Shown: positions 5,361 to 40,651 of the stretch, in pieces
Layout of the letters: every line of letters starts with the position of its first letter
How positions within the stretch are numbered: the stretch's first letter is position 1
From: an uncultured Ruminococcus sp.
Lineage (GTDB): Bacteria > Bacillota > Clostridia > Oscillospirales > CAG-272
Direction: 5' to 3'
Assembly (NCBI GenBank): GCA_902761695.1
Contig: CACWLT010000002.1
Span: 13,210-61,834, forward strand
Length of the DNA stretch: 48,625 bases
Program-made: the position numbers and the translations under genes
Notes under the pieces: generated by a model
The model's input: only the letters and a program-made list of their open reading frames with translations
The model's database searches: none
What the model was told of the DNA's origin: nothing

Positions 5361-6236
5361 ATGATCAGACGCGCGCTGGGCAGAACCGGATACGACATAT
5401 CCGCAGTGGTTTACGGCGGCATCGTCTCCATGAACGACGGACAGGAGAACTCCGACCGCTATGTGGCGTGGGCCGTGGAGCAGGGGGTGAACTACTTCGA
5501 CGTCGCGCCCTCCTACGGCGACGCGCAGGAAAAGCTGGGGAACTCCCTGATTCCCTGCCGGAAGGATATTTACCTGGCCTGCAAGACCGGGCAGAGGATG
5601 CGGCGGGAGGCGGAGGAGGAGATGAAGCGCTCCCTCACCATGCTTCACACCGACTATTTCGACGTCTATCAGATGCACGGGATCTCCTCCATGGAGGACG
5701 TGGACAGGGCGTTCGGACCCGGGGGCGTCATGGAGCTCATGCGGGAGATGAAGGAAAAGGGGATCGCCCGGAAAATCGGCATCACGGCCCACTCCGAGGA
5801 CGCGGCGCTGAAATGTCTGGAACTCTATGACTTCGACACGGTGCTCTTCCCCTTCAACTGGCACATGTTCATGGCCCACGGCATGGGGAAGCGGCTTCTG
5901 CAGACGGCGAAGGAACGGGGAATCGGCCTGCTCTGCATGAAGTCCATGATCGAGCGGGCCTGGATGGACGAGGCGGAAAAGCAGGCGTCGGGGTATCCGA
6001 AATCCTGGTGCAGGCCCTTTGACACCGGGACGCAGGCGGACCTTCTGACGGCGGCGGTGAAGTTCGCCTATTCTCTCGGAGTGGACGCCGTGGTCCCGCC
6101 CGGAAACTTCGACCACTTCTCCTTCGCGGTGAAGCACTGCGGGGAGATCCTGGCCCATCCCCTGGATGACATGGACCGGGCTCTGCTGGAGGCGCATCTG
6201 GAGAAGGTGAAGGATCACCCGTTCTTCGGGGTGTGA
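5361..6236 (+). CDS. Aldo/keto reductase
   Basis: RRALGRTG, GVNYFDVAPSYG, LACKT, LHTDYFDVYQMH, IGITAH. Confidence 0.9.
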   Translation: MIRRALGRTGYDISAVVYGGIVSMNDGQENSDRYVAWAVEQGVNYFDVAPSYGDAQEKLGNSLIPCRKDIYLACKTGQRMRREAEEEMKRSLTMLHTDYFDVYQMHGISSMEDVDRAFGPGGVMELMREMKEKGIARKIGITAHSEDAALKCLELYDFDTVLFPFNWHMFMAHGMGKRLLQTAKERGIGLLCMKSMIERAWMDEAEKQASGYPKSWCRPFDTGTQADLLTAAVKFAYSLGVDAVVPPGNFDHFSFAVKHCGEILAHPLDDMDRALLEAHLEKVKDHPFFGV

Positions 6237-11544: not shown

Positions 11545-12432
11545 ATGACCACCAAGCAGATCGATTACTGCATCGAGCTGGCGCGCACGCTCAATTTCAG
11601 CCGGGCGGCGGACAATCTCTACGTCAGCCAGCCGTCCTTTTCCTATCAGATCCGGCTTTTGGAGGAAGAGATCGGTTTCGCCGTATTCGAGCGGAGCGGA
11701 CGGGGCGCGTCTCTCACCCCGGCGGGCGCGCAGTTCGTGTCTTTTCTCACCGGGATGCGGGAGGACCTGAAGCGCGCCATCGAGCAGGGACAGAATTTCA
11801 GCGCGGCCTACCGGGACTCGATCTCCGTCAGCCTGATGGTGCGGCAGGCGGTGTATTTTCTCCCGGAGGCCATGCGGCACTTCTCCCGGAGCTGTCCGGA
11901 GGTGCAGATCACGCCCCTTTTTCAGTACGAGGGCGGGATCGAGGCGTTTCTGAAAAACGAGGTCGATCTGGTGTTCGCCCTGCGGGAGCAGACGAAGCAG
12001 ATCCCCGGGATCACGGTGTACGACCTCTTCGAGAGCCGGGTCTATCTGATCGCCGACCGGAACGATCCCTTAGCGAAGAAGAATCTCATCCGGGAGGAGG
12101 ACTTATACGGCCGGACGCTGATGGTGGGGGGCGGATCCCCGGCGGCGCTGAGGACGGTCCAGCACCGGCTGATCGGGACGGGGAGGATCCGCTATTTCAA
12201 CAGCCCGGATCACGATTCCACCCTTGTGAACGTGGCGGCGGGACGGGGAATCTGCCTCGCGCCCGGATTTCTGAACGACCACAGCGGCCAGTTCGCGTGG
12301 ATCCCCTTCGACTGCGGAGAGACCTTCTCCTGCGTCCTCATCGGCCATCAGGCGGACCGGCGGGAGAGCGTCGCGGCGTTCGTCGGGATTCTGCAGAGGC
12401 TGTACCGGGAGGCCGTGGCGTTTCCGCTGTGA
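11545..12432 (+). CDS. LysR-family regulator, divergent from the flavodoxins
   Basis: LNFSRAADNLYVSQPSFSYQIRLLEEEIG..LTPAG; 295 aa. Confidence 0.92.
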   Translation: MTTKQIDYCIELARTLNFSRAADNLYVSQPSFSYQIRLLEEEIGFAVFERSGRGASLTPAGAQFVSFLTGMREDLKRAIEQGQNFSAAYRDSISVSLMVRQAVYFLPEAMRHFSRSCPEVQITPLFQYEGGIEAFLKNEVDLVFALREQTKQIPGITVYDLFESRVYLIADRNDPLAKKNLIREEDLYGRTLMVGGGSPAALRTVQHRLIGTGRIRYFNSPDHDSTLVNVAAGRGICLAPGFLNDHSGQFAWIPFDCGETFSCVLIGHQADRRESVAAFVGILQRLYREAVAFPL

Positions 12433-12544
12433 GGTATGGCCGCAGCCGTTCCGCACGTTCCGCCAAACGGCCCCGTTGCTGCCGCCGCAGCTGCGGATTT
12501 CGGCGTTCAGACCTCGGAGCCCCGGGGCTTGTCCTTTTTTTGTT

Positions 12545-14269
<1,725 letters not shown>

Positions 14270-14292
14270 TCATTCTGCATTCTGTATTTTTC

Positions 14293-15822
14293 TCACTCCC
14301 ACTCCACCGTCGCCGGGGGCTTGGAGGTAATATCGTACACCACCCGGCTGACGTTTTTGACCTCGTTGGTGATCCGGTTCGACGCTTTCGCGAGGACTTC
14401 GTAGGGCAGCCTCGACCAGTCGGCGGTCATGAAATCGTCGGTGGACACCGCGCGGAGGGCAACGGTGTACCCGTAGGTACGGGCGTCCCCCATCACGCCG
14501 ACGGTGCGGGAATCGGTCAGGACGGCGAAATACTGATTCGTCTCCCGCTCCAGCCCCGCCGCGATGATCTCCTCCCGGAAGATCGCGTCGCAGTCCCTCA
14601 GCGCGGAGAGCTTTTCCTCCGTCACCTCCCCAAGGACGCGGATGGCCAGTCCCGGGCCGGGGAAGGGCTGACGCCATACCAGCTCGCGGGGGATCCCCAG
14701 CTCCAGCCCCGCCGCCCGCACCTCGTCCTTGAAGAGCAGGCGCAGGGGCTCCACGATTTCGTCGAAGTCGATCACCGAGGGCAGCCCGCCCACGTTGTGA
14801 TGGCTCTTGATGGTGGCCGCCTCGCCGACGCCGCTCTCCACCACGTCCGGGTAGATGGTCCCCTGCACCAGCACGTGAACGTGCCCGATTTTCTTCGCCT
14901 CCGCCTCGAAGACCCGGATGAACTCCTCGCCGATGATCTTCCGCTTTTTCTCCGGCTCCGTCACCCCGGCCAGCTTCGAGAGGAACCGCTCCCCGGCGTT
15001 CACCCGGACGATGTTCATGTCGAACCGCTCCCGGAAGGTTTTCCCCACGATGTCCCCCTCGTCCTTCCGGAGCAGGCCGTGGTCCACGAAGACGCAGACA
15101 AGGCTGTCCCCGATGGCCCGATGGAGCAGCACCGCCGCCACGGAGGAATCCACCCCGCCGGAGAGGGCGCAGAGGACCTTTTTCCCGGCGAGCTCTTTTC
15201 GGTATTTCTCCACGGACGAGCGCACGAAGTCCTCCATGGTCCAGTCCCCGGAGCAGCCGCAGACCGTGAAGAGGAAGTTTTTAAGCATCGCCTTCCCGCA
15301 TTCCGTGTGCATCACCTCGGGATGGAACTGCACGCCGTAGAGCCGCCGCTCTTCATCCGCCATGGCCGCCGCCGGACAGTGCTCCGTGGTCCCGATCACG
15401 GAAAAGCCGTCCGGGAGGCGCTTCACGTAGTCCGTATGGCTCATCCAGCAGACACTTTTCTCCGGGATCCCGTCAAACAGAGGGGATTTTTTACAGGTCA
15501 GCTCCACCTTGCCGTATTCCGAGATCGCCCCAGCGGAGCCCACCTCGCCGCCCTCCAGCCAGGCCATGAGCTGACAGCCGTAACAGATGCCGAGGACCGG
15601 GATCCCGAGAGAGAGGATTTCCCTCTCGCAGCGGGGGGACGCGGGATCGTAGACGGAATTGGGCCCGCCCGTGAAGATGATCCCGGCGTATCCGGCTTCC
15701 CGGATTTCGTCGAGCGGGGTTTTGTATGAACGGATTTCGGCATAGACGCGATGCTCCCGCACCCGCCGCGCGATGAGCTGATTGTACTGCCCGCCGAAAT
15801 CGAGCACGAGGATCTTATCCAT
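14293..15822 (-). CDS. guaA: GMP synthase (glutamine-hydrolysing)
   Basis: [44 protein letters not shown]. Confidence 0.97.
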
Positions 15823-15843
15823 ATCGAATGCGCAGTCTCCTTT

Positions 15844-16590
15844 TCAGCGGTTTTCGTCCGCGGCGGCTCCGTCTGCCTCCGTCCGGTCCTCCAGCCTGCC
15901 CATGATCTCCCGGTACGCTTCCTCCACGCCTCCGAGATCCCGGCGGAAACGGTCCTTATCCAGCTTTTTCCCGGTCTCGCTGTCCCACAGTCTGCAGGTA
16001 TCGGGGCTGATTTCGTCCGCGAGGATGATGCTTCCGTCCGGCAGCCTGCCGAATTCCAGCTTGAAATCGACCAGGGTGACGCCCCGGGCGAGCCAGAAGG
16101 CCTTTAAAAGCTCGTTCGTCCGGAACGAGAGCGTCTTGATCTCCTCGATCTCCTCCGGCGCGGCGAGGCCGAGGGCCAGGGCGTGGTACTCGTTGAGGAG
16201 CGGGTCGCCCAGCGCGTCGTTTTTGTACGAGAACTCGATGGTGGGGGAATCGAACGCGGTCCCCTCCTCCACGCCGTAGTTTTTTGCGAAGGATCCGGCA
16301 GCCATGTTGCGGACGATCACCTCCAGCGGAACGATTTTCACCTTTTTCACAAGGGTGTCCCGGTCGTTCAGCTCCTTCACATAGTGCGTCGGGATCCCTT
16401 CCTTCGCCAGATAGCGCATCAGGGCGTTGCTCATCCGGTTGTTGATGACGCCCTTGCCCTCGATAGTCCCGCGCTTCAGGCCGTTGAACGCGGTCGCGTC
16501 GTCCTTGTAGGACACGATCAGAAGCGCCGGATCCTCGGTCGCATAGACTCTTTTTGCCTTTCCCTCGTAGAGCAGAGAACCTTTTTCCAT
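15844..16590 (-). CDS. purC: SAICAR synthetase
   Basis: LYEGKAK, KDDATAFNG, LVDFKLEFG, LADEISPDTCRLWD; GGAGG before ATG 16590. Confidence 0.96.
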   Translation of the reverse strand: MEKGSLLYEGKAKRVYATEDPALLIVSYKDDATAFNGLKRGTIEGKGVINNRMSNALMRYLAKEGIPTHYVKELNDRDTLVKKVKIVPLEVIVRNMAAGSFAKNYGVEEGTAFDSPTIEFSYKNDALGDPLLNEYHALALGLAAPEEIEEIKTLSFRTNELLKAFWLARGVTLVDFKLEFGRLPDGSIILADEISPDTCRLWDSETGKKLDKDRFRRDLGGVEEAYREIMGRLEDRTEADGAAADENR

Positions 16591-16630
16591 GATTTCCTCC
16601 GTTTCGGACAATCTGTATCTTCGATTTTGT

Positions 16631-17215
16631 TTAAGCTTCGCTGTCTCTGATGATCTCCAGGGCGATCTCCCTGCGTGGGAGACAGCGGTCCATCGCCTGT
16701 TTTTCGATATACCGGTGCGCGGCGGCCTCGTCCATCGAGCGCGTCCGGATCAGCGCCCATTTGGCCCGGTTGACGAGGCGGATTTCCTCCATCTTTTCCT
16801 CCAGCGTGAGGGTCTTTCTCTCGGACATCCGCAGCCGTTCCCTGGCGCTCCGCATCCACGAGAGGGCGGTCGAGACGGTGTTTTTCGACACGGGCTTCGG
16901 GAGGACGAACACCCCGCGGCCGCCGAGCCTTTCGTCCGTTTCCGCGTAAAGCTCCGCCCGGACGAGGAAGAGGACGACGCATCCGCCCGACGACGAATCG
17001 ATGGCGAAGCGCGCGCCGCTGTCGTCCGGCAGGGGGGAATTGACGAGGATCAGGTCGAATTCCCGCTCCGCCGCCGCCCGTTTCGCCGCCGAGACGGATG
17101 TGACGCCCTGCACGGGGGAATAGCGTTCCTCCGTCAGCATGGAGCGGAGCGCGTCGTTCATCTGTCCCGGCGCGGACACGAGCAGAACGCCGTACGCGCG
17201 GCCTTCTTCAAGCAT
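16631..17215 (-). CDS. Pseudo-receiver + ANTAR RNA-binding antiterminator (NitR/AmiR-like)
   Basis: C-terminal EIRLVNRAKWALI..MDEAAAHRYIEKQAMDR..REIA. The receiver lacks its acidic pocket (LLVSA) and phospho-Asp (LILVNSPLP). Confidence 0.9.
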   Translation of the reverse strand: MLEEGRAYGVLLVSAPGQMNDALRSMLTEERYSPVQGVTSVSAAKRAAAEREFDLILVNSPLPDDSGARFAIDSSSGGCVVLFLVRAELYAETDERLGGRGVFVLPKPVSKNTVSTALSWMRSARERLRMSERKTLTLEEKMEEIRLVNRAKWALIRTRSMDEAAAHRYIEKQAMDRCLPRREIALEIIRDSEA

Positions 17216-17255
17216 CTCTCACCCCTCCCTTCGCTGTAACTGCGCGGTTCTCATG

Positions 17256-18428
17256 TCACTCCGCGCCGTAGGCCTTCCGCACGGACGGGGGCAGGCAGTC
17301 CCGGACGAAGCCGCTGTTTTTCGCTGAGGCTTTCGCCGCCGAAAGATCCCCGGGCAGCCGCGCTCCGCTTGCCGTGTTCCCCTCTGGCGGCAGAACGGCG
17401 CCTTTATAAAATCCCGCCAGTCCCGCGCGGATCAGCAGCGTCAGGGCGAGGTACGGGTTCGCGCCGGGATCCGGGGAACGCAGCTCGGCCCGGTTCTCCC
17501 CTTCCGGCATCCAGACAAGGCGGGCGCGATCCCTGCCGGACCACGCGATTCCGTTGTCCCGCCCCGCGAGCCGTCTATAGGAACTCTCCGTCGGATTGAG
17601 AAAGAGCGTCATGGCGCCGAGGTGGGAGAGGATTCCGGACGTGACTGCGGCGAGGGCCTGTTCCCCGGGGCACGCATCCTTCGCCGGCCGCACGGAATAG
17701 TTGATGTGGCATCCGTTCCCGGGCTCCCCGTCCAGGGGCTTGGGGGAGAAATCCGCCGCGAGGCCGTTGCGGTGCGCCACGGTGCGGACCACGGTCTGGA
17801 AGGTCATGGCGTTATCCGCGGCGGAGAGGGCATCGGAGAAATGAAAGTCGATTTTGTTCTGGCCCGGTCCCTCCTCATGGCAGGAGCTTTCCGGGCGGAT
17901 CCCCATCTGCTCGAGAGTCAGGCAGACCTCCCGCCGGATGTTCTCCCCCCGGTCCTCGGGCGCGATGTCCATGTAGCCCGCGCGGTCGTAGGGAATCCCC
18001 GTGGTCCTGCCGTCCTCGTCCGTGCGGAAGAGGTAGAAGGTCTGCTGGAGGCCGAAGAGGAAGGACAGTCCCGCCTCCTCCGCGTCCGCCGCCGCTTTTT
18101 TCAGAAGGCTCCGGGTATCGGCGGGATGGGGTGTGCCGTCGGGGAGAGCCGCCGCCGCGTACATTCTCACGACCCTCCCGTGCTCCGGACGCCAGGGCAG
18201 CACCGAAAGCGTCGCGGGGTCGGGGCGGAGCGTCAGGCTCGGCTCCCCCTCAAAACCGCAAACGGCGGAGGGATAAAAGGGTATCCCCCCGTCAAAGGCG
18301 CGCTCCAGCTCACCGGGCATGATGGAGATATTTTTCTGCCGTCCGAAAAGATCGCAGAAGGCCAGGCGGATGAACTTGACGTCCTCTTCACGGACGTATT
18401 CCATGACCTCGTCTTTGGTATAATTCAT
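17256..18428 (-). CDS. glnA: Glutamine synthetase type I homolog with degenerate active site
   Basis: VKFIRLAFCDLFG, LPWRP, HEEGPGQ, PKP..GNGCH, ELRSPD; several metal ligands substituted (see findings). Confidence 0.85.
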   Translation of the reverse strand: MNYTKDEVMEYVREEDVKFIRLAFCDLFGRQKNISIMPGELERAFDGGIPFYPSAVCGFEGEPSLTLRPDPATLSVLPWRPEHGRVVRMYAAAALPDGTPHPADTRSLLKKAAADAEEAGLSFLFGLQQTFYLFRTDEDGRTTGIPYDRAGYMDIAPEDRGENIRREVCLTLEQMGIRPESSCHEEGPGQNKIDFHFSDALSAADNAMTFQTVVRTVAHRNGLAADFSPKPLDGEPGNGCHINYSVRPAKDACPGEQALAAVTSGILSHLGAMTLFLNPTESSYRRLAGRDNGIAWSGRDRARLVWMPEGENRAELRSPDPGANPYLALTLLIRAGLAGFYKGAVLPPEGNTASGARLPGDLSAAKASAKNSGFVRDCLPPSVRKAYGAE

Positions 18429-18469
18429 GACAATACTCCTGAAATGCAGTGTATTCGCACTATGTAAGG

Positions 18470-18850
18470 AAGGAAACCCTGCGGATTTCCAATTAATCGT
18501 ATGTCCCTGCGCGGGACAGGCGGCACGAGGGACACCATCTCATGGCCGACTGAGTTCACGCTGTGAACTCGGGTGCCCACTCGTGCGGGTCCCCCTTGGC
18601 CGGGGAGCATAACTTATCCTCTCATCTCTGTATCTAAACTTGACAGTTCATCCCACGTCCTCGCCTGAAGAATGCTCTGCATTCTTCGGGAGTTGCTCCG
18701 CAACTCCGGCGGACCACGGTGCGTCAGCTGAAACATGCGTGAAATCCCATCGGAGATGGAATTTCACGTGTTTCCCGCGCCGACGCAGTCGCGCAGGAGC
18801 CTCGCAAACAGCGATCGAAACGCGCATGACACGGGGCGCGATGGAGAATA
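18470..18850. other. Densely structured non-coding intergenic element (nested hairpins)
   Basis: At least 7 inverted repeats, e.g. GAGTTCAC-gct-GTGAACTC, GAAGAATGC-tct-GCATTCTTC, GGAGTTGC-tcc-GCAACTCC, TGCGTCAGC..GCCGACGCA. Confidence 0.65.
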
Positions 18851-18946
18851 GGCGGAGAATATAATTCATCCGCGCGAATTGGAGGGTATTCATTCGCTGG
18901 GAGGTGTTATCCTTTTGGTGGTGTTCCTTTTCTGCTCGTCCGCCCG

Positions 18947-19669
18947 TCAGTTTTCCACGTACATTCTGCGGTAGGGGTTGGCGGTGTCGGGGGTTATGAG
19001 GGTGAAGGGGGAAGAGAGGATGCTCTCCGCGTCCTTGGCGAAGAGGGCGGCGTAGGTTTCGATAATCGGGCGGACAGCCGTCATATCCTCCGGGGTCGCC
19101 TCTCTGGCGGTGACCTGGGGAGGGAAGGCGATATCCGTGCAGGAGCCGCGCAGCACCATCTTTCCGCCGTGCATGCCGGTACAGGGGAAGTCCCCCACGA
19201 TCCTGCGGCTGTCCTCGTGCAGGCCCAGCACCACGATGAGGCCGCCGGCCTGGTATTCGCCGAGAAAGCTGCCCGCGCACCCGCCGATGACGAGGACGGG
19301 GATTTTGTCCTTGTATTCCTTCATATGGATCCCGGCCCGGTAACCGGCGCTGTCCCGGACGTAGATTTCCCCGCCGCGCATGGCGTACCCGGCCGCGTCC
19401 CCGATGCTCCCATGGATCACGATCCGGCCGCCGTTCATGGTGTCGCCCACCGCGTCCTGCGCGCTGCCGTCCACCGTGATTTCCGCGCCGTTGAGGTAGG
19501 CGCCCAGGGCGTTGCCGGGGATCCCTCTGATTTCGATGCTGCCCCCGCTCATGCCCGCGCCGATGAACCGCTGGCCGAGGCATCCCGTGACCCGGACGGA
19601 TCCCCCCGCTCCCCGGATCGCCTCGTTCAGCTCCCGGTGGTCCAGCTCCTTTGCGTAAAGCGTCGTCAT
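18947..19669 (-). CDS. Glutamate synthase GXGXG-domain subunit (GltB3-like)
   Basis: GQRFIGAG, GNALGAYLNG, GDTMNGG, GEYQAGG, GMHGG repeats. Confidence 0.9.
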   Translation of the reverse strand: MTTLYAKELDHRELNEAIRGAGGSVRVTGCLGQRFIGAGMSGGSIEIRGIPGNALGAYLNGAEITVDGSAQDAVGDTMNGGRIVIHGSIGDAAGYAMRGGEIYVRDSAGYRAGIHMKEYKDKIPVLVIGGCAGSFLGEYQAGGLIVVLGLHEDSRRIVGDFPCTGMHGGKMVLRGSCTDIAFPPQVTAREATPEDMTAVRPIIETYAALFAKDAESILSSPFTLITPDTANPYRRMYVEN

Positions 19670-20904
19670 ACCGCACCTCCGAATTTTCTCCGCCGTTGTT
19701 CGCGCGAAAAGGCCGCCGTGGTCGCCGCGTGCCGCAGAAGCCCGAAATCGAGCGTATCGAGGGGGATCCTTTCCCGGATGAGGGAGGTATAGATCCCGGC
19801 CCGCTCCTCACAGCCGACGAGGGCAAAGCCGGTGAGGAACCCGTCCTTCGTCCAGAGCTTCTTCATCCACCCCGGTCCGCGCTCTTCAAAGACCGCGCAG
19901 CCCTCGGGAGCCGATCCCGCCGTCAGGCAGTGCAGGCCGAAGAAGCCGATGGCGTTGAGAGGGACGGCGTTGTCAAAGGTCCTGTCCCCGCCCGCCATAT
20001 TGATTCCGGCGCACTCCCCCTGAAGCCTTGCGTTCGGGAGGATGGCGAGCACGCGGTTTGCCCCGAGGGAGGAATCGTACCCTTCGGCGCAGTCCCCGGC
20101 GGCGTAAATATCCGGGACGCTTGTCCGCATGTGTCTGTCAACGATGATCCCGCGATTCACATCGCCGCCGATGTCCTTCACAAGGGCGGTGTTCGCCCGC
20201 ACGCCCACCGCCAGGACGAGGATGTCAAAATCCATCGTCTTTCCGCTTTTCATGACGGCGCGGTTCCCCTCAAACCGATCCGCCGTGTCGCCGGGCAGGA
20301 AGGAGATTCCGTGCTCCTCCAGCCTTGCCCGCATCAGGGCCGCGCCTTCCTCGTCGAGGATGCTGGAGAGGATCCGGGGAGCCAGATCGCAGACCGTGAG
20401 GGAACCCGCGCGTTCCGCCAGTCCCTCCGCGCATTTCAGCCCGATCAGCCCCGCGCCGACGATGAGCACGCGGCTGTTCTCCGTGACCGCGGCGTCCAGG
20501 GCGAGCATGTCGTCCATGGTCATGAAGGAGAACTTTCGCGCCACCGTGTCCAGCCCCGCCATGGGAGGGACGAAGGGGGAGGATCCCGCCGCGACGCAGA
20601 GCTTCGTGTAGGGCAGGCACGCGCCTTCGTTCAGTGTCACGGATTTTTTATCGGGATCGATCCCGACGGCTTTTGTACCGAACAGGACTCTGCATCCGTT
20701 TTTCTCATAGAAATCCGCCGGACGCTGGTTCATGTTCCCGGGATCCGCCTTCCCTTCAAGCGCGCAGGAGATGAGCGGGCGGCAGTAGGCGGGGTATTTT
20801 TCGGCGGAGATCACGGTGACCGGCGATTCCGTGTCAAGGGAGCGGATCCCCTCGATGCAGGAGACCGCCGCCGTCCCGTTGCCGATGATGACGTAGTTTT
20901 CCAT
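19666..20904 (-). CDS. FAD/NAD(P)H pyridine nucleotide-disulfide oxidoreductase, probable electron-input subunit of the split GOGAT
   Basis: IIGNGTAA, YCRP, IVGAGLIG, TSVPDIYAAGDC. Confidence 0.85.
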   Translation of the reverse strand: MENYVIIGNGTAAVSCIEGIRSLDTESPVTVISAEKYPAYCRPLISCALEGKADPGNMNQRPADFYEKNGCRVLFGTKAVGIDPDKKSVTLNEGACLPYTKLCVAAGSSPFVPPMAGLDTVARKFSFMTMDDMLALDAAVTENSRVLIVGAGLIGLKCAEGLAERAGSLTVCDLAPRILSSILDEEGAALMRARLEEHGISFLPGDTADRFEGNRAVMKSGKTMDFDILVLAVGVRANTALVKDIGGDVNRGIIVDRHMRTSVPDIYAAGDCAEGYDSSLGANRVLAILPNARLQGECAGINMAGGDRTFDNAVPLNAIGFFGLHCLTAGSAPEGCAVFEERGPGWMKKLWTKDGFLTGFALVGCEERAGIYTSLIRERIPLDTLDFGLLRHAATTAAFSREQRRRKFGGAV

Positions 20905-20908
20905 GGCC

Positions 20909-21340
20909 TTACCTCTCCTCATAGACGATGGCGCGGTTCGGACAGCCCTTCACGCACGCCGGTTCTCCGGACGCGTTTGAAAGGCACAGCTCGCATTTCT
21001 GCATCACGCCGTCCTCCGCCGGAGCGAGCGCGCCGTAGGGACAGACGAGGACGCAGGTGAAGCAGCCCACGCAGCGGGTTTTTTCGATCCGGATCACCCC
21101 GTCCTCCCCCTGCGAGAGAGCTCCGGCGATGCAGGCCTTCACGCAGAGAGGGTCGTCGCAGTGGCGGCAGGATACGGCGTAGGTCACCCGCTCGTCCCCT
21201 TCGATATGGATGCGCGGGAAGATCGGCTTCCCCCGGAGCGCGGACGCCATGTCGGACCCGCCGGAATTGGCGAAGGCGCAGTTGTATTCGCAGAGATGGC
21301 AGCCGAGGCACCACTCTTCGTTGACGTAAACTCTTTTCAT
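20909..21340 (-). CDS. 4Fe-4S dicluster protein (HydN/CooF-like)
   Basis: CLGCHLCEYNC, CRHCDDPLCVKAC, CVGCFTCVLVCP, KCELC..CVKGCP. Confidence 0.9.
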   Translation of the reverse strand: MKRVYVNEEWCLGCHLCEYNCAFANSGGSDMASALRGKPIFPRIHIEGDERVTYAVSCRHCDDPLCVKACIAGALSQGEDGVIRIEKTRCVGCFTCVLVCPYGALAPAEDGVMQKCELCLSNASGEPACVKGCPNRAIVYEER

Positions 21341-21343
21341 CCT

Positions 21344-22849
21344 TCATTCCCCCGCGTGGGCGATGCCTAAAATCTCCAGCTCCTTCTCCGTCATCCCGAC
21401 GCCGCGGAGCATGAGCCGGTTGCCGCGCAGCGCTTCGATCGAATTGATCCCCATGCCGCCGAGCAGCTCCATGATTTCGTGCCGCCAGGCCGTCATGAGG
21501 TTGACGAGGCGTTCGGAGCCCACGTCCGGGTTGAGCCGCTTCACAAGCTCCGGCCTCTGCGTCGCGATGCCCCAGCTGCACCGCCCGGTCTGGCAGGTGC
21601 GGCAGAGATGACAGCCCAGCGCCAGGAGGGCTGCCGTGGCGATATAGCACGCGTCCGCTCCGAGAGCGACGGCCTTCACCACGTCTGCGGCGGAACGGAT
21701 GCTGCCCCCGACCACCAGGGATACGTCTCCCCGGATCCCCTCGTCCCTGAGACGTCTGTCCACGGATGCCAGGGCAAGCTCGATGGGGATCCCCACGTTG
21801 TCCCGGATCCTTGTGGGAGCCGCGCCCGTGCCGCCCCGGAAGCCGTCGATGGCGATGATGTCCGCGCCGGACCGGGCGATCCCCGAGGCGATGGCGGCGA
21901 TGTTGTGGACGGCGGCGACCTTGACGATCACCGGCTTTTTGTATTCCGTCGCTTCCTTGAGGGAGAGGACGAGCTGGCGGAGATCCTCGATGGAATATAT
22001 ATCGTGATGCGGAGCCGGGGAGATGGCGTCGGAGCCCTCGGGGATCATGCGCGTCCGGCTGACGTCCCCCACGATCTTCGCTCCGGGCAGGTGTCCGCCG
22101 ATCCCCGGCTTCGCGCCCTGGCCCATCTTGATCTCGATGGCCGCGCCCGCCCGCAGGTAGTCCTCGTGGACCCCGAACCGCCCGGACGCCACCTGCACCA
22201 CGGTGTTCGGCCCGTATTTGTAAAAATCCTCGTGAAGCCCGCCCTCGCCGGTGTTGTAGAGAATGCCCAGCTTCTCCGCCGCTCTCGCGAGGGAGGCGTG
22301 GGCGTTGTAGGAGATGGATCCGTAGCTCATGGCGGAGAACATCACGGGCATGGACAGCGCGATCTGCGGCGGGAGGCTTGTGTCAAGGGTTCCGTCCGGT
22401 TTTCTTCTGATTTTGTCCGGCTTCTTTCCGAGGAAGACCCGGGTCTCCATGGGCTCTCTGAGCGGGTCGATGGGGGGATTGGTGACCTGGGAAGCGCCTA
22501 CGAGCATCCTGTCCCAGTACACCGGCAGCGGATTCGGGTTGCCCATGGACGAGAGCAGCACCCCGCCCGAGGACGCCTGCTTGTAGATTTCCCCAATGGC
22601 GGTGCCCTGCCAGTTGGCGTTCTCCCGGAAGGCGTTCGGGTTCTTCACGATCTTCAGCGCCCTTGTGGGACAGAGGGAGACGCACCGCTGGCAGTCCACG
22701 CACCTCGTTTCGTCCGAGAGCATGATCCCGCGCTCCTCATCGAACCGGTGCACCTCGTTGGCGCACTGTCGCTCGCACACACGGCAGGCGATGCAGCGGG
22801 CTTCATTGCGCTGAACCTCAAATTCCGGCTGTACATACGCGATTGCCAT
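21344..22849 (-). CDS. Glutamate synthase FMN-binding subunit with N-terminal ferredoxin (GltB2-like)
   Basis: Start MAIAYVQ (TAATG overlap with the upstream gene); AMSYGS, NTGEGG, QVASGRFG, EIKMGQGAKPGIGGHLPG, CHLCRTC..C. Confidence 0.93.
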   Translation of the reverse strand: MAIAYVQPEFEVQRNEARCIACRVCERQCANEVHRFDEERGIMLSDETRCVDCQRCVSLCPTRALKIVKNPNAFRENANWQGTAIGEIYKQASSGGVLLSSMGNPNPLPVYWDRMLVGASQVTNPPIDPLREPMETRVFLGKKPDKIRRKPDGTLDTSLPPQIALSMPVMFSAMSYGSISYNAHASLARAAEKLGILYNTGEGGLHEDFYKYGPNTVVQVASGRFGVHEDYLRAGAAIEIKMGQGAKPGIGGHLPGAKIVGDVSRTRMIPEGSDAISPAPHHDIYSIEDLRQLVLSLKEATEYKKPVIVKVAAVHNIAAIASGIARSGADIIAIDGFRGGTGAAPTRIRDNVGIPIELALASVDRRLRDEGIRGDVSLVVGGSIRSAADVVKAVALGADACYIATAALLALGCHLCRTCQTGRCSWGIATQRPELVKRLNPDVGSERLVNLMTAWRHEIMELLGGMGINSIEALRGNRLMLRGVGMTEKELEILGIAHAGE

Positions 22850-23949
22850 TACCGATTCCCCCCTTCCGTCCTTGCCGTCACGACGACGGGTTCTCCGCCC
22901 GCCGGATACCGGATGTTCCCGGCCTCGGGATCCATGGCCCGGATGGCGGCCTCTTCGCTGGCGATATACACCCGGGAGCCGTGCTCGCCCACCACCATGG
23001 ACCGCAGCTTCAGCCTGTCGTTCAGCGCCATGAGCCCCCCGTTGAAGCCGAGGATGATGGAGAAAGGCCCGGTGACGAGCAGGGAGGGGAAGAGCGTGCG
23101 GAGACAGGTGAGCTTTTCCCGCTTCTCCGGATCCTCCTCCGCCTCGATGGACGACCAGAACGGAGCCGCGGTCACCGACGCCGCCTCTTCGAGCGTCAGG
23201 CCCTGCCGCCGGAGCAGATAGTCCATGATGTAGGTGATGACCTCGGTGTCGGTCTGGAGAGTGCATTTGTAGCCGAACATCTCGATCCACCGGCGGTTGG
23301 CGTCGTAGGAGGAGATCTCCCCGTTGTGGACCACGGACCAGTCCAGCAGGGTGAAGGGATGCGCGCCGCCCCACCAGCCGGGGGTGTTCGTAGGATACCG
23401 CCCGTGCGCCGTCCACGCGTACCCGGCGTATTCCTCCAGCCGGTAGAACTCCGCCACGTCCTCGGGATAGCCCACGGCCTTGAAAGCGCCCATGTTCTTC
23501 CCCGACGAGAAGACGTACCCGCCCCGCCGCTCCGTATTGATCTTCATCACCGTGCGCACGACGAATTCACGCTCGTCCACCTGCTCCGCCGCGAGCCGTG
23601 ATTTCAGCGGATCGACGAAATACCGCCAGATCACCGGCTCGTCCGTGACGGCGGGGATCTTCCTTGTGGGGACGAGCTCACTCTTTACGATCTCGAACCG
23701 TTCCTTTAAATAGACCTCGCAGTCCTTGCGCGCCGCCCGGTCCTCGAAAAAGAAATGCAGGGCGTAAAAATCACGGTATTCCGGATAGATCCCGTAGCCG
23801 GCGAATCCCCCGCCCAGGCCGTTGGAGCGCTCGTGCATGGGGCGCATGGCCTCGGCCGTGAGGTTCCCGGGGATCATCCCGCCGTCCCGGTCGATCACGG
23901 CGGCGATGGCGCAGCCCGATGGGATCCTGACCTCTCCTTCCATTTTCAT
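22849..23949 (-). CDS. Class II glutamine amidotransferase subunit (GltB1-like)
   Basis: SGCAI, ERSNGLGGG, AHGRYPTNT, AHPF, HNGEI, TDTE, NDRLKLR; GGAGG RBS. Confidence 0.9.
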   Translation of the reverse strand: MKMEGEVRIPSGCAIAAVIDRDGGMIPGNLTAEAMRPMHERSNGLGGGFAGYGIYPEYRDFYALHFFFEDRAARKDCEVYLKERFEIVKSELVPTRKIPAVTDEPVIWRYFVDPLKSRLAAEQVDEREFVVRTVMKINTERRGGYVFSSGKNMGAFKAVGYPEDVAEFYRLEEYAGYAWTAHGRYPTNTPGWWGGAHPFTLLDWSVVHNGEISSYDANRRWIEMFGYKCTLQTDTEVITYIMDYLLRRQGLTLEEAASVTAAPFWSSIEAEEDPEKREKLTCLRTLFPSLLVTGPFSIILGFNGGLMALNDRLKLRSMVVGEHGSRVYIASEEAAIRAMDPEAGNIRYPAGGEPVVVTARTEGGNR

Positions 23950-23961
23950 GGTCTTCCTCCG

Positions 23962-24049
23962 AAAAAGAAAACGCGCCCATCCCGAAAAACCGGAATGAAC
24001 GCCTTTGCTCATTTGTCCGTATTATACGGGATTCCGCCGGAGTTGTCAA
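23962..24049 (-). promoter_or_regulatory. sigmaA promoter + ANTAR-type hairpin overlapping a terminator (leftward operon)
   Basis: TTGACA-17 nt-TATAAT (24049-24021); AATGAGC-AAAGGC-GTTCATT hairpin (24013-23994); terminator GCGTTCATTCCGG..TCGGGATGGGCGC-GTTTTCTTTTT. Confidence 0.82.
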
Positions 24050-24130
24050 GGGGGAGCGCGTAAATTCGAGCGAATAAATATTCAAAGGCATACCGCCCGA
24101 ATTTTGTGCAACTTACCAGTGAGGTTCCCC

Positions 24131-24315
24131 TTGACAGGACGGAAAAAGCGGAGTATAATACCGCCATGGAAGGCAAAGGCGTCTTCGCGGATCGGTTTCG
24201 CGGAGGCGTTTTCCTTTTTTACCATGATACAGTGGATCGGCAAAATCACATATTTATACAATAAAGGCAAAGGCGTCTTTATCCGGGGAATCCGGAGAGG
24301 TGTCTTTGCCTTTCT
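24131..24315 (+). promoter_or_regulatory. sigmaA promoter + two tandem ANTAR-type hairpin/attenuator units (rightward operon)
   Basis: TTGACA(24131)-17 nt-TATAAT(24154); GAAGGC-AAAGGC-GTCTTC (24169-24186) with terminator to 24220; ATAAAGGC-AAAGGC-GTCTTTAT (24261-24282) inside a competing long hairpin to 24315. Confidence 0.82.
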
Positions 24316-24352
24316 CACATTTCAGGGCCTTACGGGGCAGGAGGATTTCACA

Positions 24353-26452
24353 ATGGCGGCAAACGTGCAGGAAACATTCGGCAGCATGGTGTTCGACGAC
24401 AGAGTCATGAAGGCGCATCTCCCGGCAAAGGTCTACGCGTCCCTCAGAAAGACCATCGACGAGGGCGCGGAGCTGGACGTGGCCGTGGCCAACGCGGTGG
24501 CAGACGCCATGAAGGAATGGGCCGTCTCAAAGGGCGCGACCCACTTCACCCACTGGTTCCAGCCGCTCACCGGCATCACGGCGGAAAAGCACGATTCCTT
24601 CATCTCCCCGGCTCCGGACGGCGGCGTCCTCATGGAGTTTTCCGGAAAGGAGCTCATCAAGGGCGAGCCGGACGCCTCCTCCTTCCCCTCGGGCGGACTG
24701 CGGGCCACCTTCGAGGCCAGGGGCTACACCGCGTGGGATCCGACCTCCTACGCCTTCATCAAGGGAAAGACCCTCTGCATCCCCACGGCCTTCTGCTCCT
24801 ACGGCGGGCACGCGCTGGACAAGAAGACGCCCCTGCTCCGCTCCATGGAGGCCATCAACCGGCAGGCGCTGCGCATTCTCCGGCTCTTCGGAAATACGGA
24901 CGTCAAGCGCGTCACTACCTCGGTGGGACCGGAACAGGAGTATTTCCTCATCGACCGGAAGCTCTACGAGAAACGGCCCGATCTGCGCTTCACCGGCCGG
25001 ACCCTCTTCGGCGCGAAGCCTCCCAAGGGCCAGGAGATGGACGACCACTACTTCGGCGTCATCAAGCCCCGCGTCGCCGCCTACATGGAGGAGCTGAACG
25101 AGGAGCTCTGGAAGCTGGGGATCCTCGCCAAGACGGAGCACAACGAGGTGGCCCCTGCCCAGCACGAGCTGGCTCCGATCTATACCACCACCAACGTTGC
25201 CACGGATCACAACCAGCTCACCATGGAGATCATGCAGAAGGTGGCGGCGAAGCACGGGCTGGTCTGCCTGCTCCACGAAAAGCCCTTCGCAGGGGTCAAC
25301 GGCTCCGGCAAGCACAACAACTGGTCCATCGCGACGGACACGGGGGTCAACCTCCTCTCCCCGGGCGAGACGCCCTATGAAAACGCGCAGTTCTTAACCT
25401 TCCTCTGCGCCGTGATCCAGGCCGTGGACGACTACGCCGACCTCCTCAGGATCTCCGTGGCGACCGCCGGCAACGACCACAGACTGGGCGCCAACGAGGC
25501 CCCGCCCGCCGTGGTGTCCATGTTCCTCGGGGACGAGCTGACCGCCATCCTTGACGCCATCGAGGCGGACAGGCCCTACAGCGCGGCGGAGAAGACCGTC
25601 ATGAAGCTGGGCGCGGACGTGCTCCCCCAGTTCCGCCGGGACGCCACGGACCGCAACCGCACCTCCCCCTTCGCCTTCACCGGCAACAAGTTCGAGTTCC
25701 GGATGCTGGGCTCCTCCAACTCCATCGCCTGCGCCAACATCATGCTCAACGCCGCCGTAGCCGAGAGCCTGAGACAGTACGCGGACCGGCTGGAGGCGGC
25801 GGACGATTTCGAGGCGGCCCTGCACGACCTGATCCGGGACGTGGTGGCCGCCCACAAGCGGATCCTCTTCAACGGCAACGGCTACGACGACGCGTGGATC
25901 AAAGAGGCGACGGAGGTCCGCGGCCTGCCCAACTACCGCACCACCCCCGACTGCTTCCCGGAGCTTCTGTCCGAGAAGAACGTCACGATGCTGACCTCCC
26001 ACGGCGTCTTCACCCCGGCGGAGCTGAAATCCCGGTACGAGATTATGCTGGAGAACTACTGCAAGACCGTGCTGATCGAGGCGAACACCATGATCGACAT
26101 GGCGAAGCGGCAGATCCTCCCGGCGGTTGCCTCGTATGCCGCTGCCCTTTCCTCCGACATCGCGGCGAAGCGGTCCGTCTCCGAGCCCCTGTCCTGCCGG
26201 TACGAGGTCCGCACCGCCGCAGCCCTGTCCCGTCTCGCGGATTCCATCGCGGACCGGGTGGACGAGCTGGAGACGGCGGCGGACAAAGCGCGGAAGATCG
26301 GGGAGATCGGTCCCCAGTCCTTCGCCATCCGGGACCACGTTCTCGGCGGCATGACGGCTCTGCGCGGCCTATGTGACGAGGCTGAGACGATCACCGCCGC
26401 GGAATACTGGCCGTTCCCGACCTACGGGGAGCTGCTGTTCGGCGTGAACTGA
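24353..26452 (+). CDS. glnN: Glutamine synthetase type III
   Basis: [83 protein letters not shown]; catalytic motifs intact. Confidence 0.95.
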
Positions 26453-26534
26453 CAAGCGTCTGTTCATGACTGCGGGGCTGTACAAAATCCTGCGCGCTGC
26501 TGTCCCCGCCATTACCCTGAAAGGGAGTACCACC

Positions 26535-28250
26535 ATGACTTACTCATCCGTCAACACCATCTGGGTCCTGCTCGGCGCGGCCCTCGTCTTCTTCATGCAG
26601 GCCGGATTTTCCATGTGCGAGGCCGGCTTCACCCGTGCCAAGAATACCGGAAACATCCTCATGAAGAACCTCATGGATTTCTGCATCGGAACCCCGGCGT
26701 TCTGGCTCGTGGGTTTCGGGATCATGTTCGGCTCGGGCACGGCCCTCTTCGGGCGCATCGATCCCTTCATCCTGGGAGACTACAGCCATATCCTCCCGGC
26801 GGGCGTTCCGCTCTGGGCGTTCGCCATTTTCCAGACCGTCTTCTGCGCCACCTCCGCGACCATCGTGTCCGGGGCCATGGCGGAGCGGACGAAGTTCTCG
26901 GCGTACTGCATCTATTCCCTCTGCATCTCCCTCTTCATCTATCCCGTCTCCGGCCACTGGATCTGGGGCGGCGGCTGGCTCTCCGCGCTGGGGTTCCACG
27001 ATTTCGCGGGCTCGACCTGCGTGCACATGGTGGGCGGGGTCTGCGCGTGCATCGGCGCGGCGATCCTTGGTCCCCGCATCGGCAAGTACGGACGGGACGG
27101 CAAGCCGAAGGCGATCCTCGGCCACAATCTGACGGCGGCGGCGCTGGGGGTGTTCATTCTCTGGTTCTGCTGGTTCGGCTTCAACGGCGCGTCCACCGTG
27201 GGCATGGATTCCGACGAGCTGGTGGTCTCCGCCGGACTGGTCTTCTTCAACACCAACCTCTGCGCGGCCGTCGCCTGCTGCACCACCCTGATCACCACGT
27301 GGATCCGCTACAAAAAGCCCGACGTCTCCATGACCTACAACGCGGCGCTGGCGGGTCTGGTGGGGATCACGGCGGGATGCGACGCGGTCTCTCCGGCAGG
27401 AGCGGCGGTGATGGGCCTCTGTTTCGGCTTTGTCATTGTCTTCTCCGTGGAGTTTTTCGACAAGGTGGCGAAGATCGACGATCCCGTCGGGGCGATCTCC
27501 GTTCACGGGATCTGCGGCGCGCTGGGCACGATCCTCACGGGCTTCTTCGCCACGGGCGTTTCCACCGAGAAGGGCGTCTTCTACGGCGGCGGGTTCCGTT
27601 TCCTCGGCGTGCAGGCCCTCGGCGTCGTGACCGTGGCGGCGTATGTGGCCCTCGTCATTACGATTGTTTTCTTCATCCTCAAAAAGACCGTCGGGCTCCG
27701 GGCCGATCCCGCGGACGAGATACAGGGACTGGACGTCTCGGAGCACGGGCTGCTGACCGCCTACGCCGGATTTGCCATGTCCCCCGACACCGCGAGCATG
27801 GAAAGCGATTCCGCGCCCGTTGTCGTGACCGGAGACGCCCCGCCCGCCGAGGCCGTGACCGTGAAGCGCGTTCCCTCGTTCGAGGAAGGGACGCCGAAGT
27901 TCACCAAGGTCGAAATCATCTGCAAGGAGAGCCGCTTTGAAGCGCTGAAAAACGCCATGACCGACCTCGGCATCACGGGCATGACCGTCTCCCACGTCCT
28001 CGGCTGCGGACAGCAGAAGGGACGGACGGAATACTACCGGGGCATTGCGGTAGAGGCGACGCTTCTGCCGAAGGTGCAGGTGGACATCGTCGTATCGAAG
28101 ATCCCGGTCCGCTCCGTGATCGAGACGGCGAAGAAGGTCCTTTACACCGGCCACATCGGCGACGGCAAGATCTTCGTTTACGACGTGGAGAACATCGTGA
28201 AGGTCCGGACCGGCGAGGAAGGCTACGACGCCCTGCAGGACGTGGAATAA
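26535..28250 (+). CDS. amtB: Ammonium transporter fused to a C-terminal PII domain
   Basis: FFMQAGF, IVSGAMAER, DFAGSTCVH, WFGFNG, DDPVGAISVHG; then PII ITGMTVSHVLGCG..TGHIGDGKIFV..VRTGEEG. Confidence 0.95.
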   Translation: MTYSSVNTIWVLLGAALVFFMQAGFSMCEAGFTRAKNTGNILMKNLMDFCIGTPAFWLVGFGIMFGSGTALFGRIDPFILGDYSHILPAGVPLWAFAIFQTVFCATSATIVSGAMAERTKFSAYCIYSLCISLFIYPVSGHWIWGGGWLSALGFHDFAGSTCVHMVGGVCACIGAAILGPRIGKYGRDGKPKAILGHNLTAAALGVFILWFCWFGFNGASTVGMDSDELVVSAGLVFFNTNLCAAVACCTTLITTWIRYKKPDVSMTYNAALAGLVGITAGCDAVSPAGAAVMGLCFGFVIVFSVEFFDKVAKIDDPVGAISVHGICGALGTILTGFFATGVSTEKGVFYGGGFRFLGVQALGVVTVAAYVALVITIVFFILKKTVGLRADPADEIQGLDVSEHGLLTAYAGFAMSPDTASMESDSAPVVVTGDAPPAEAVTVKRVPSFEEGTPKFTKVEIICKESRFEALKNAMTDLGITGMTVSHVLGCGQQKGRTEYYRGIAVEATLLPKVQVDIVVSKIPVRSVIETAKKVLYTGHIGDGKIFVYDVENIVKVRTGEEGYDALQDVE

Positions 28251-28262
28251 CGGAGGAATGTC

Positions 28263-40639: not shown

Positions 40640-40651
40640 CTTCCCACCAAA

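Follow-up and report, generated by a model that had tools for sequence, protein, structure and literature searches.

We analyzed two adjacent genes in a 48,625-nucleotide (nt) stretch of DNA from an uncultured Ruminococcus sp. (GenBank assembly GCA_902761695.1, contig CACWLT010000002.1), hereafter the window. The first encodes a protein derived from the alpha class of type I glutamine synthetase (GSI-alpha), which we call GlnA*, and the second encodes an antiterminator with an ANTAR domain. The best-supported explanation for this arrangement is that GlnA* is a pseudo-enzyme that purifying selection maintains as a sensory partner for its neighbour, a NitR-type ANTAR protein whose pseudo-receiver domain would not be switchable by phosphorylation; we consider the chances of this explanation to be about even. 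Published work is cited by its PMC number, for the passages available from each source.

17256-18428, minus strand: GlnA*, GSI-alpha-derived protein of 390 amino acids (aa) with a destroyed catalytic centre and an intact 2-oxoglutarate-pocket motif (unbroken open reading frame, Pfam, alignment, AlphaFold2 model)
16631-17215, minus strand: NitR-type ANTAR antiterminator of 194 aa with a pseudo-receiver, Asn59 and Ser14-Ala15 replacing the acidic pair (open reading frame, Pfam, alignment)

Catalytic residues and fold of GlnA*

The initial annotation of this DNA, made from the sequence alone, had described an unbroken 390-aa GlnA frame in which conserved GSI motifs are altered. The frame is indeed unbroken, and each of the alterations was seen in the alignment to solved GSI-alpha structures, among which 7tdp_A was the best partner (E 5.8e-78). 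Together these alterations go far past anything that chance would produce. The Asp50' loop reads ipFYPSAv in place of mmFDGSSi, with Tyr52 replacing the Asp and the loop shortened by 2-4 residues; vGPEPEFf has become fGLQQTFy, the first Glu being replaced by Gln128 and the second by Thr130; GQHEIDF has become GQNKIDF, with Lys192 for Glu; the Glu flap PGYEAPcy is cut down to GRDN--g; and mIRIP reads vWMP, with Trp306 for Arg. The motifs said to remain (GxH, YRR, DR and ELR) were likewise found in the structure alignment, as GNGCH (His241), SYRRL (Arg286), RDR (Arg301) and RAELR (Glu315, Arg317), together with HE (Glu185). In the numbering of the S. typhimurium enzyme, we take the lost residues to be Asp50', Glu129, Glu131, Glu220, Glu327 and Arg344, and those kept to be Glu212, His269, Arg321, Arg339, Glu357 and Arg359. 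With E129, E131, E212, E220, H269 and E357 presumed to be the six metal ligands of glutamine synthetase (GS), three of the six are replaced in GlnA* (Q128, T130, K192) and three are kept (E185, H241, E315). Because three metal ligands, Asp50', Arg344 and the Glu flap are gone, GlnA* cannot, judging from its sequence, be a normal GS. Four of the five active-site loops, as named in PMC11957540, are shortened or deleted, and the Glu flap and the Asp50' loop are named among the catalysis-critical loops in PMC10799026.

The protein scored 203.8 bits against Gln-synt_C and 45.6 bits against Gln-synt_N of Pfam, and 230 bits against the type I GS equivalog TIGR00653 of NCBIfam, below its cut-off of 429.15. 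An AlphaFold2 model of GlnA* reached a pLDDT of 91.5 and a pTM of 0.92, and a Foldseek search with this model returned GSI-alpha structures at TMq values of 0.89-0.93, the best of them (0.93) being 8s59_A, the 2-oxoglutarate-bound, active GS of M. mazei.

The 2-oxoglutarate pocket

The site for 2-oxoglutarate (2-OG) in M. mazei GlnA1 lies between subunits, with F24, R26 and R87 contributed by one and R172, R173 and S189 by the other, and 2-OG binding drives assembly and activation of this enzyme (PMC11957540). The corresponding residues in the M. thermolithotrophicus GS are F18, R20, R88, R174, R175 and S191, and the Bacillus-type GS is described as lacking the 2-OG motif, with a Tyr, a clashing Glu and no Arg88 (PMC10799026). 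In the alignment of GlnA* to 8s59, which is offset by one from the native numbering, the archaeal pocket maps to F19, R21, R80, R165, R166 and S182, with Ser35 and Val86 at the blocking positions. These six residues are invariant in all 16 members of the clade of dead forms to which GlnA* belongs, and are kept in 76-80 of 80 members of a related type of about 402 aa that carries Lys in the flap (the Lys-flap type). The pocket reads FRRRRS in most degenerate representatives clustered at 50% identity, and in nine of the ten degenerate ANTAR-linked copies of a class-level sample, the exception (L145) reading FKRRRS.

The initial annotation had proposed GlnA as a sensor of glutamine, glutamate or nucleotides. 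The sensor role stands as the best-supported one, but not that choice of ligands: nucleotide or glutamate sensing is less likely because the metal/ATP site is precisely the part that is destroyed, while the 2-OG pocket motif is intact. As far as residue conservation can tell, 2-OG appears more likely to be the signal than glutamine or nucleotides; retention of the pocket is consistent with 2-OG sensing, and is no proof of it.

An unlikely alternative is that what remains of the active site binds glutamine, glutamate or adenine nucleotides, and that GlnA* senses these rather than 2-OG. It would account for the invariance of Arg286, Arg301, Glu315, Arg317, His241 and Glu185, of which Arg286 presumably corresponds to Arg321, the binder of the glutamate carboxylate. 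The signalling of GS to TnrA and GlnR provides a precedent (PMC9249791, PMC4335299). Against it, the Arg of glutamine feedback (R62 in B. subtilis, R66 in M. mazei) is Gly in 15 of the 16 clade members and Arg in 2 of the 80 Lys-flap members, both loops that close over glutamine, the Asp50' loop and the Glu flap, have been shortened or deleted, and Gln, Thr, Lys and Trp stand in place of the Mg-ATP ligands.

The ANTAR partner and the conservation of the gene pair

The statement that the next gene encodes an ANTAR protein with Asn at the phospho-acceptor Asp and no kinase nearby also held. The product of 16631-17215 scored 54.3 bits against PF03861 (cut-off 27.3), with ANTAR columns that are invariant across 19 partners, and its N-terminal half scored 23.6 bits against Response_reg, under the cut-off of 30.2. 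The acceptor position is Asn59 (LILVNSPLPD), and the acidic pair reads VSA. No gene with HisKA or HATPase_c was found within about 26 kb of the pair, the nearest being a hybrid kinase at 43771-46332. The Asn is nevertheless a trait of the family and not special to this locus: among 80 GlnA-linked ANTAR partners in loci from GTDB species genomes, the acceptor position is occupied by Asn in 73, Ser in 4, His in 2, Gln in 1 and Asp in none, and the first acidic position is Ser in 78, while 19 partners from the same order carry Asn (16), His (2) or Asp (1). The source draft genome contains one ANTAR gene above the cut-off and three GS-like genes, glnA* and two of type III (GSIII).

GlnA followed directly by ANTAR on the same strand was found in 18 of 20 loci from the same order, in all 80 loci from GTDB species genomes (Allobaculum stercoricanis, Mediterraneibacter agrestimuris and Anaerotignum lactatifermentans included), and for 39 of the 41 GlnA genes in 40 class-level loci, which were chosen from the upper part of a list of 232 matches and are not a random sample. 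A further 20 picks from lower in that list had the same order in 15 cases. The order is near-universal in the sampled Clostridia. The two order-level loci without an ANTAR neighbour carry copies of about 440 aa with metal ligands and flap Glu, the flap of L032 being fully canonical. As for the two class-level exceptions, one lies at a contig end and the other is the first gene of a GlnA-GlnA-ANTAR tandem; in this tandem (L156, G257:C1) the catalytic residues are canonical in both GlnA copies.

Most loci share the island found in the window, in which a GSIII gene is divergent from an operon of glutamate synthase (GOGAT), GlnA and ANTAR genes, and in most loci GlnA stands sixth in the GOGAT operon, immediately following the gene of the GXGXG subunit. 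The remaining genes of the island in the window are as follows.

18429-18946, no strand assigned: 518-nt spacer between GOGAT genes and glnA*, with a copy of a hairpin-rich dispersed repeat (BLASTN, locus comparison)
18947-19669, minus strand: glutamate synthase GXGXG-domain subunit (Pfam)
19666-20922, minus strand: NAD(P)/FAD pyridine-nucleotide-disulphide oxidoreductase, subunit of the split GOGAT (Pfam, NCBIfam)
20909-21340, minus strand: 4Fe-4S dicluster ferredoxin-like subunit (Pfam)
21344-22849, minus strand: glutamate synthase FMN domain with an N-terminal 4Fe-4S (Glu_synthase, 453.7 bits)
22849 to about 23949 (listed open reading frame to 24012), minus strand: class-II glutamine amidotransferase GOGAT subunit (Pfam, alignment of relatives)
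24353-26452, plus strand: GSIII glutamine synthetase, catalytic motifs complete and probably the working GS (Pfam, alignment to 3o6x)

RNA leaders with candidate ANTAR-target hairpins

A 400-nt spacer separates the divergent GSIII and amidotransferase genes and holds the promoters of both transcripts, whose leaders are as follows.

23963-24049, minus strand: leader of the GOGAT-glnA*-ANTAR operon (12/12 sigma-70 promoter at 24049-24021, hexaloop hairpin, terminator)
24131-24222, plus strand: GSIII leader, first element (12/12 sigma-70 promoter at 24131-24159, hexaloop hairpin, terminator)
24261-24312, plus strand: GSIII leader, second element, hairpin ATAAAGGC[AAAGGC]GTCTTTAT at 24261-24282 against a competing long hairpin at 24263-24312

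Both transcripts open within about 10 nt with a C-G-closed hairpin that carries the hexaloop AAAGGC. This hexaloop has A at position 1 and G at position 4, which are the positions that matter for ANTAR targets (PMC3369931, PMC12591593). In the GOGAT leader the hairpin AATGAGC[AAAGGC]GTTCATT (24013-23994) shares its 3' arm with the 5' half of the terminator at 24002-23973, whose T run extends to 23963; in the GSIII leader the hairpin GAAGGC[AAAGGC]GTCTTC (24169-24186) overlaps the terminator at 24176-24212 and its T run, and a second copy of the hexaloop lies 94 nt downstream of the first. The motif recurs in other genomes, in 32 of 36 GSIII leaders, 23 of 36 GOGAT leaders and 11 of 34 GlnA leaders where GlnA heads its operon, with two recurring stem flavours (AAAGGC..GTCTTT and ATGAGC..GTTCAT) and at a density of 2.5 per kb in leaders vs 0.21 per kb over whole loci. 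In minimum-free-energy folds, 41 of 49 and 20 of 27 hairpins had their 3' arm taken into a stronger stem downstream, as its 5' half.

A search of positions 12000-28000 against Rfam (E<=1) returned no riboswitch, T-box or curated ANTAR-target family, the only match being a sub-threshold one to ASdes. In the whole source genome (G000), a crude scan for the hexaloop with a T run gave 17 matches, of which only the two leaders of the window look real, and the exact core RGCAAAGGCGY occurs in a leader-like context at only three sites, all in the window. The second GSIII gene of this genome (contig C231, L035) has a promoter-like TTGCAA...TATAAT and a short leader. Neither a hexaloop hairpin nor a terminator was found in that short leader, and therefore not every GS gene appears to be under ANTAR-type control. 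In two genomes of the dead-form clade (G056 and G058), glnA* and the ANTAR gene form an operon of their own behind a hexaloop leader, which would place the pseudo-enzyme itself under nitrogen-type antitermination control.

These arrangements bear on the idea that GlnA* is a non-catalytic subunit or regulator of the split GOGAT or of GSIII, the ANTAR protein sensing by other means and the gene order reflecting co-expression only. The usual place of GlnA within the GOGAT operon would suit such a subunit, as would a protein that is conserved and folded. We regard it as quite unlikely: the invariant neighbour of GlnA is the ANTAR gene and many loci (e.g. L016, L020-L022, L056, L095 and L161-L167) have the pair without adjoining GOGAT, the pair of G056 and G058 is separately leader-controlled, and the ANTAR protein contains neither a phospho-acceptor nor another sensor domain.

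Conservation and selection in the dead-form clade

A word-index search with GlnA* returned 7997 relatives. Eleven protein clusters (P0001-P0011) with 67-100% identity to GlnA* carry the dead motifs in intact reading frames, and from about 62% identity downward come relatives of about 402 aa that keep FDASA, GAEQEF, GQNEID and RIP. The dead form, again with intact reading frames, was present in 7 of the 53 species genomes of the placeholder genus (G000, G004, G057, G056, G058, G048 and G021). Maximum-likelihood analysis of 54 rows placed the 14 dead-form rows in a single clade of their own (support 100/100), nested inside the Lys-flap type on a stem of 0.58 changes per site.

Within the clade, Y52, Q128, T130 and K192 are identical in 16 of 16 members, and position 306 is W in 14 and Y in 2. 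The ratio of nonsynonymous to synonymous substitution rates (dN/dS, Nei-Gojobori) was 0.13-0.27 across 21 pairs; the six pairs whose dS did not exceed 0.72 gave 0.13-0.16, close Lys-flap pairs 0.05-0.15 and ANTAR partners 0.23-0.43. Of 142 sites conserved at 95% or more in the 80 Lys-flap GlnAs, 117 carry the same residue in the clade. The 25 changed sites divide into 7 with a fixed new residue (Q10E, D52Y, F101H, E128Q, E130T, E192K and N300D) and 18 that are variable, among them R306, H183 and the flap positions 288-292. The scaffold is kept; what has been rebuilt is the catalytic centre. Selection with dN/dS below 1, which the initial annotation had proposed to test in ANTAR-adjacent GlnA homologs, is borne out, and the simple decay that it had named as the alternative does not describe this copy, which is not evolving neutrally: because the replacements are fixed in 16 of 16 members, dN/dS is 0.13-0.27 and 117 of 142 conserved sites are kept, the dead clade is, on this evidence from substitution patterns, a conserved lineage and not decay.

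The same observations make it quite unlikely that GlnA* is a relic left after a takeover by GSIII, persisting by slow decay or through polar effects on the ANTAR gene. A relic would fit a dN/dS above that of the relatives, the long stem branch, the repeat inserted upstream and the existence of a similar pair (L054, below) that looks like real decay. Frames that stay intact in seven species genomes and eleven clusters do not fit it, nor do the invariance of the replacement residues themselves and the dedicated, regulated leader before glnA* in two genomes.

The ANTAR partners were also examined for co-acceleration with GlnA in a mirror-tree comparison. The ANTAR tree recovered the same clade (support 0.97), with a stem of 0.16 that is about 1.5 times its median inner branch, whereas the GlnA stem of 0.42 is about 6 times its median; no clear sign of co-acceleration was seen.

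Recurrent loss of catalytic residues beside ANTAR genes

ANTAR-linked GlnAs of about 430-446 aa have every catalytic residue and the flap Glu. In the Lys-flap type (n = 80), E131, H269 and E357 are present in all, E129 in 76, E212 in 79 and E220 in 78, but the flap residue is Lys in 78, Arg in 2 and Glu in none, and the Asn264 position is Pro in 74. Six of these 80 (L083, L102, L104, L113, L119 and L132) independently lack a metal ligand or Asp50'. The clade of the window has lost five catalytic residues and the flap, and GlnA* is the far end of a series leading from the canonical type of about 440 aa through the Lys-flap type to the dead form.

Among the 41 class-level GlnAs, 10 are degenerate in at least six patterns (DSSGVS, QEEEAT, DEKQEF, DENAQH, DEKAQH, NREEEH and DDEEEH..L), each of them with ANTAR as the next gene; the 20 canonical-length picks include no degenerate copy. 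The initial annotation had asked whether ligand loss recurs in ANTAR-adjacent GlnA, and with 6 of 80 Lys-flap members, 10 of 41 class-level genes and L054 it does. Catalytic loss is repeated, and in every case seen it lies beside an ANTAR gene. The last of these, L054 (G057:C83), is a second GlnA paralogue of 429 aa whose replacements are E129K, E212K and H269T, with a flap Gly. It shares its type with the 50% representative P0171 and has an ANTAR neighbour of its own. Since this neighbour lacks about 18 residues of the ANTAR domain, the two genes are probably a duplicate pair undergoing true decay.

More broadly, the 123 best 50%-identity representatives of 340-460 aa (HMMER) include 14 in which all 11 catalytic positions are canonical, most of the others having several replaced. 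Two of the 123 are partial and some are fragments, genomic context was not part of this set, and, because clustering at 50% over-represents fast-evolving lineages, the result speaks of breadth and not of frequency. The relatives also include two giant predicted proteins, P0127 (4424 aa with 11 GS-like stretches) and P0149 (2757 aa with 6), whose stretches are about 30% identical to GlnA*.

The least probable of the readings considered is that GlnA* is an enzyme with a new chemistry, catalyzing another ATP-grasp-like ligation or a one-metal or metal-free reaction, as might be compared with gamma-glutamyl-amine ligases: the fixed Y52, Q128, T130 and K192 could mean a re-modelled site, and Glu185, His241, Glu315, Arg286, Arg301 and Arg317 are kept, but other ANTAR-linked lineages have lost different sets (DSSGVS, DENAQH, DEKQEF, QEEEAT, NREEEH), unrelated patterns of the kind expected from loss of function rather than from a single new activity, shortening or deletion affects four of the five active-site loops, and known GS-like ligases keep their metal ligands.

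The intact GSIII that had been noticed in the same cluster (24353-26452, plus strand) aligned end to end with the B. fragilis GSIII 3o6x (E 1.7e-193), with the catalytic motifs, including R..E.R, kept. A GSIII-like gene was present in all 12 genomes checked that have a degenerate copy, namely G000, G004 and ten others, 11 of them without any other GSI and one (G250) with one. The proposal that catalysis has passed to GSIII is supported to this extent, with GSIII as the likely, and only likely, working GS that performs real glutamine synthesis. A Lys-flap GlnA as the sole GS of a genome would prove that type to be active; five of five genomes checked also have GSIII and are uninformative on this point.

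Weighing the sensor model

In the model that we favor, 2-OG would bind the inter-subunit pocket of GlnA* as it does in archaeal GSI-alpha, and GlnA* would respond with a change in conformation or oligomer state that in turn alters the activity of the antiterminator. The ANTAR protein would act on the AAAGGC hexaloop hairpins that compete with terminators in the GSIII and GOGAT-glnA*-ANTAR leaders, and GSIII would make the glutamine. The analysis establishes that the catalytic residues are lost, that protein, gene pair and pocket are conserved, and how the leaders are built; we infer the contact between GlnA* and the ANTAR protein, the identity of the ligand and the direction of control, be it sequestration or activation. 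Each of the four alternatives above explains less of the pattern than this model.

The co-folding of the two proteins that the initial annotation had suggested gave a score of 0.33 (runs 0.30, 0.43 and 0.33) vs 0.00 for the best control, which falls in the weak class. The input alignments had 26 rows for GlnA* and 19 for the ANTAR protein; the runs shared at least 83% of their contacts, and the pLDDT of the partner was at least 83. In calibration, 58 of 80 solved complexes scored high enough to reach the mark, as did 2 of 110 mismatched pairs, and since scores of 0.60 or less came from only 7 of the 80 complexes and from both mismatches, the result counts as weak support.

Several observations weigh against the sensor model. 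A co-fold pass of this class would be more often wrong than right unless the prior is strong. A search for GlnA-ANTAR fusions found 6 longer ANTAR relatives among 4345 candidates, and no Gln-synt domain in any of them; the CTP-synthase domains of one are what a merger with the neighbouring pyrG during gene calling would produce. The pocket is also present in 20 of 20 canonical-length clostridial copies (17 exact, the others L/T variants), and its retention is expected under any model that keeps the fold, because it is ancestral and 117 of 142 conserved sites are kept anyway. The dN/dS of the clade is about twice that of the Lys-flap relatives, and constraint is therefore relaxed; L054 illustrates that simple decay of a GlnA-ANTAR pair is possible too. 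Each terminator is accompanied by a single hexaloop hairpin, with no P1 partner found in these leaders, although dual-hairpin targets have been described for EutV, NasR and AmiR (PMC3369931). In the window the 518-nt repeat parts glnA* and the ANTAR gene from the GOGAT genes, with no promoter identified for the pair. Expression evidence is thin: a single 219-nt metatranscriptome contig lies inside glnA* (18165-18383, 2 mismatches), and it gives a hint of transcription only, because DNA can occur in such libraries. Contigs of two further runs (X18 and X19), only guessed to be RNA, match 17883-18102 of glnA* and 16823-17038 of the ANTAR gene. The RNA-labelled runs left much of the GOGAT genes and one glnA* bin uncovered, a gap that is uninformative in contig data.

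Relation to known systems

The closest known arrangement is glnA-nitR of solventogenic clostridia (C. saccharobutylicum NCP262, 'C. acetobutylicum P262'), with the same GSI gene followed by a receiver and ANTAR gene and the same linkage to GOGAT. NitR is described as an antiterminator that induces GS and GOGAT genes under nitrogen limitation (PMC6316151, citing Stutz et al. 2007). In C. thermocellum the cluster Clo1313_2030-2036 has the layout of the window island, and its ANTAR gene Clo1313_2030 is co-expressed with 2031-2036 (PMC4676874). In both of these systems GlnA is taken as a working enzyme, which GlnA* cannot be.

Control of an ANTAR protein by sequestration through a ligand-binding partner encoded beside it is known from NasS-NasT. 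In AmiC-AmiR of P. aeruginosa, the ligand-binding partner encoded next to it likewise sequesters an ANTAR protein with a non-phosphorylated receiver-like domain (PMC12591593). The partners in these two systems have a periplasmic-binding-protein fold, whereas the partner in the window would be an oligomer of the GS fold, whose contact with the ANTAR protein is the inferred step. GSI-alpha of B. subtilis reports nitrogen status to TnrA and GlnR by direct contact (PMC9249791, PMC4335299, PMC6316151); that GS is active, its glutamine feedback runs through Arg62 and its regulators bind DNA, whereas in the window the Arg is absent and the regulator would bind RNA.

The archaeal 2-OG-activated GSI-alpha enzymes (M. 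mazei GlnA1, M. thermolithotrophicus GS) provide the closest structure and align at all six pocket residues. They are enzymes that 2-OG switches on, and in GlnA* the pocket would have a purely signalling role. In M. mazei, C-terminal helices link the two hexamer rings (PMC11957540); these helices are shortened in GlnA*, which has 390 aa vs about 446. A GS-fold protein kept for another role also has a parallel outside bacteria, although of a different kind.

Lengsin, of the vertebrate lens, has the GS fold without GS activity and is kept for a non-catalytic role. Unlike GlnA*, it is eukaryotic and structural and has no regulatory partner.

The glnA-nitR module was already known. New points are a clade of dead GlnA proteins, catalytic loss that recurs next to ANTAR genes and a connection with the archaeal 2-OG pocket; no mention of them was found in the searchable literature. 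Nor did that literature, outside which Stutz et al. 2007 lies, contain a passage proposing GlnA as the sensor of NitR or reporting dead GlnA copies. How NitR-type antiterminators sense nitrogen has been open since the glnA-nitR cluster was described, as they have no kinase, acceptor Asp or ligand domain, and a conserved, non-catalytic GlnA tied to ANTAR by gene order and carrying a 2-OG pocket points to the GS protein itself as the sensor. We extend this tentatively, at somewhat less than an even chance, to the clostridial glnA-nitR pair at large, which may be a protein-protein switch in which the GSI-alpha oligomer, active or dead, is the 2-OG receptor of the ANTAR protein. If so, hundreds of 'glutamine synthetase' annotations of the Lys-flap type of about 400 aa, and their relatives with scrambled sites, would be sensors first and enzymes second or never, and the dead copies would be natural separation-of-function mutants, with that of the window as one clean example. 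The family would offer a bacterial case of an enzyme turning into a trigger enzyme and then into a pseudo-enzyme, many times over. GlnA* should also be a clean reagent, with no enzymatic activity expected to confound binding, reporter or structural work. In metabolic models, many genes from gut and rumen Clostridia that are annotated 'glutamine synthetase' should not be treated as assimilating ammonium, GSIII being the likely enzyme.

Other features of the locus and genome

The true start of the amidotransferase subunit is probably the Met of MKMEG near 23949, because relatives align only from residue 14-21 and the start at 24012 would overlap the leader hairpin and terminator (24013-23963). 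When the 518-nt spacer was compared with the source draft genome (437 contigs, 82.9% complete, 62% G+C) by BLASTN (E<=1e-10), it gave 123 high-scoring segment pairs on 76 contigs, 53 of them of at least 200 nt (one the self match) on 45 contigs with a median identity of 78%. The junction between the GXGXG and glnA genes is only about 15 nt in the closest relative (L013), vs 518 nt in the window, and metagenome contigs break at the edges of the repeat, which looks like a miniature inverted-repeat transposable element or a repetitive extragenic palindromic element inserted inside the operon.

After the ANTAR gene, in minus-strand order, come purC, guaA and pyrG, and the nitrogen island is flanked on both sides by genes of glutamine-consuming enzymes, pyrG/guaA/purC at 12545-16611 and GATase_6/7 (purF-like), carA and carB at 29843-35544; pyrG, guaA and purC also recur beside the GlnA-ANTAR pair in many other genomes. 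Long open reading frames without a Pfam match (E<=1e-5) lie in the regions 26544-29093, 4210-6218 and 37841-40776, all on the minus strand; one, 849 aa long, follows GSIII immediately and runs opposite to it; some may be spurious antisense frames in a genome of this G+C content. Near-identical DNA was found in bovine, sheep and goat gut metagenome runs (20 rows from 14 studies, one possibly the source sample).

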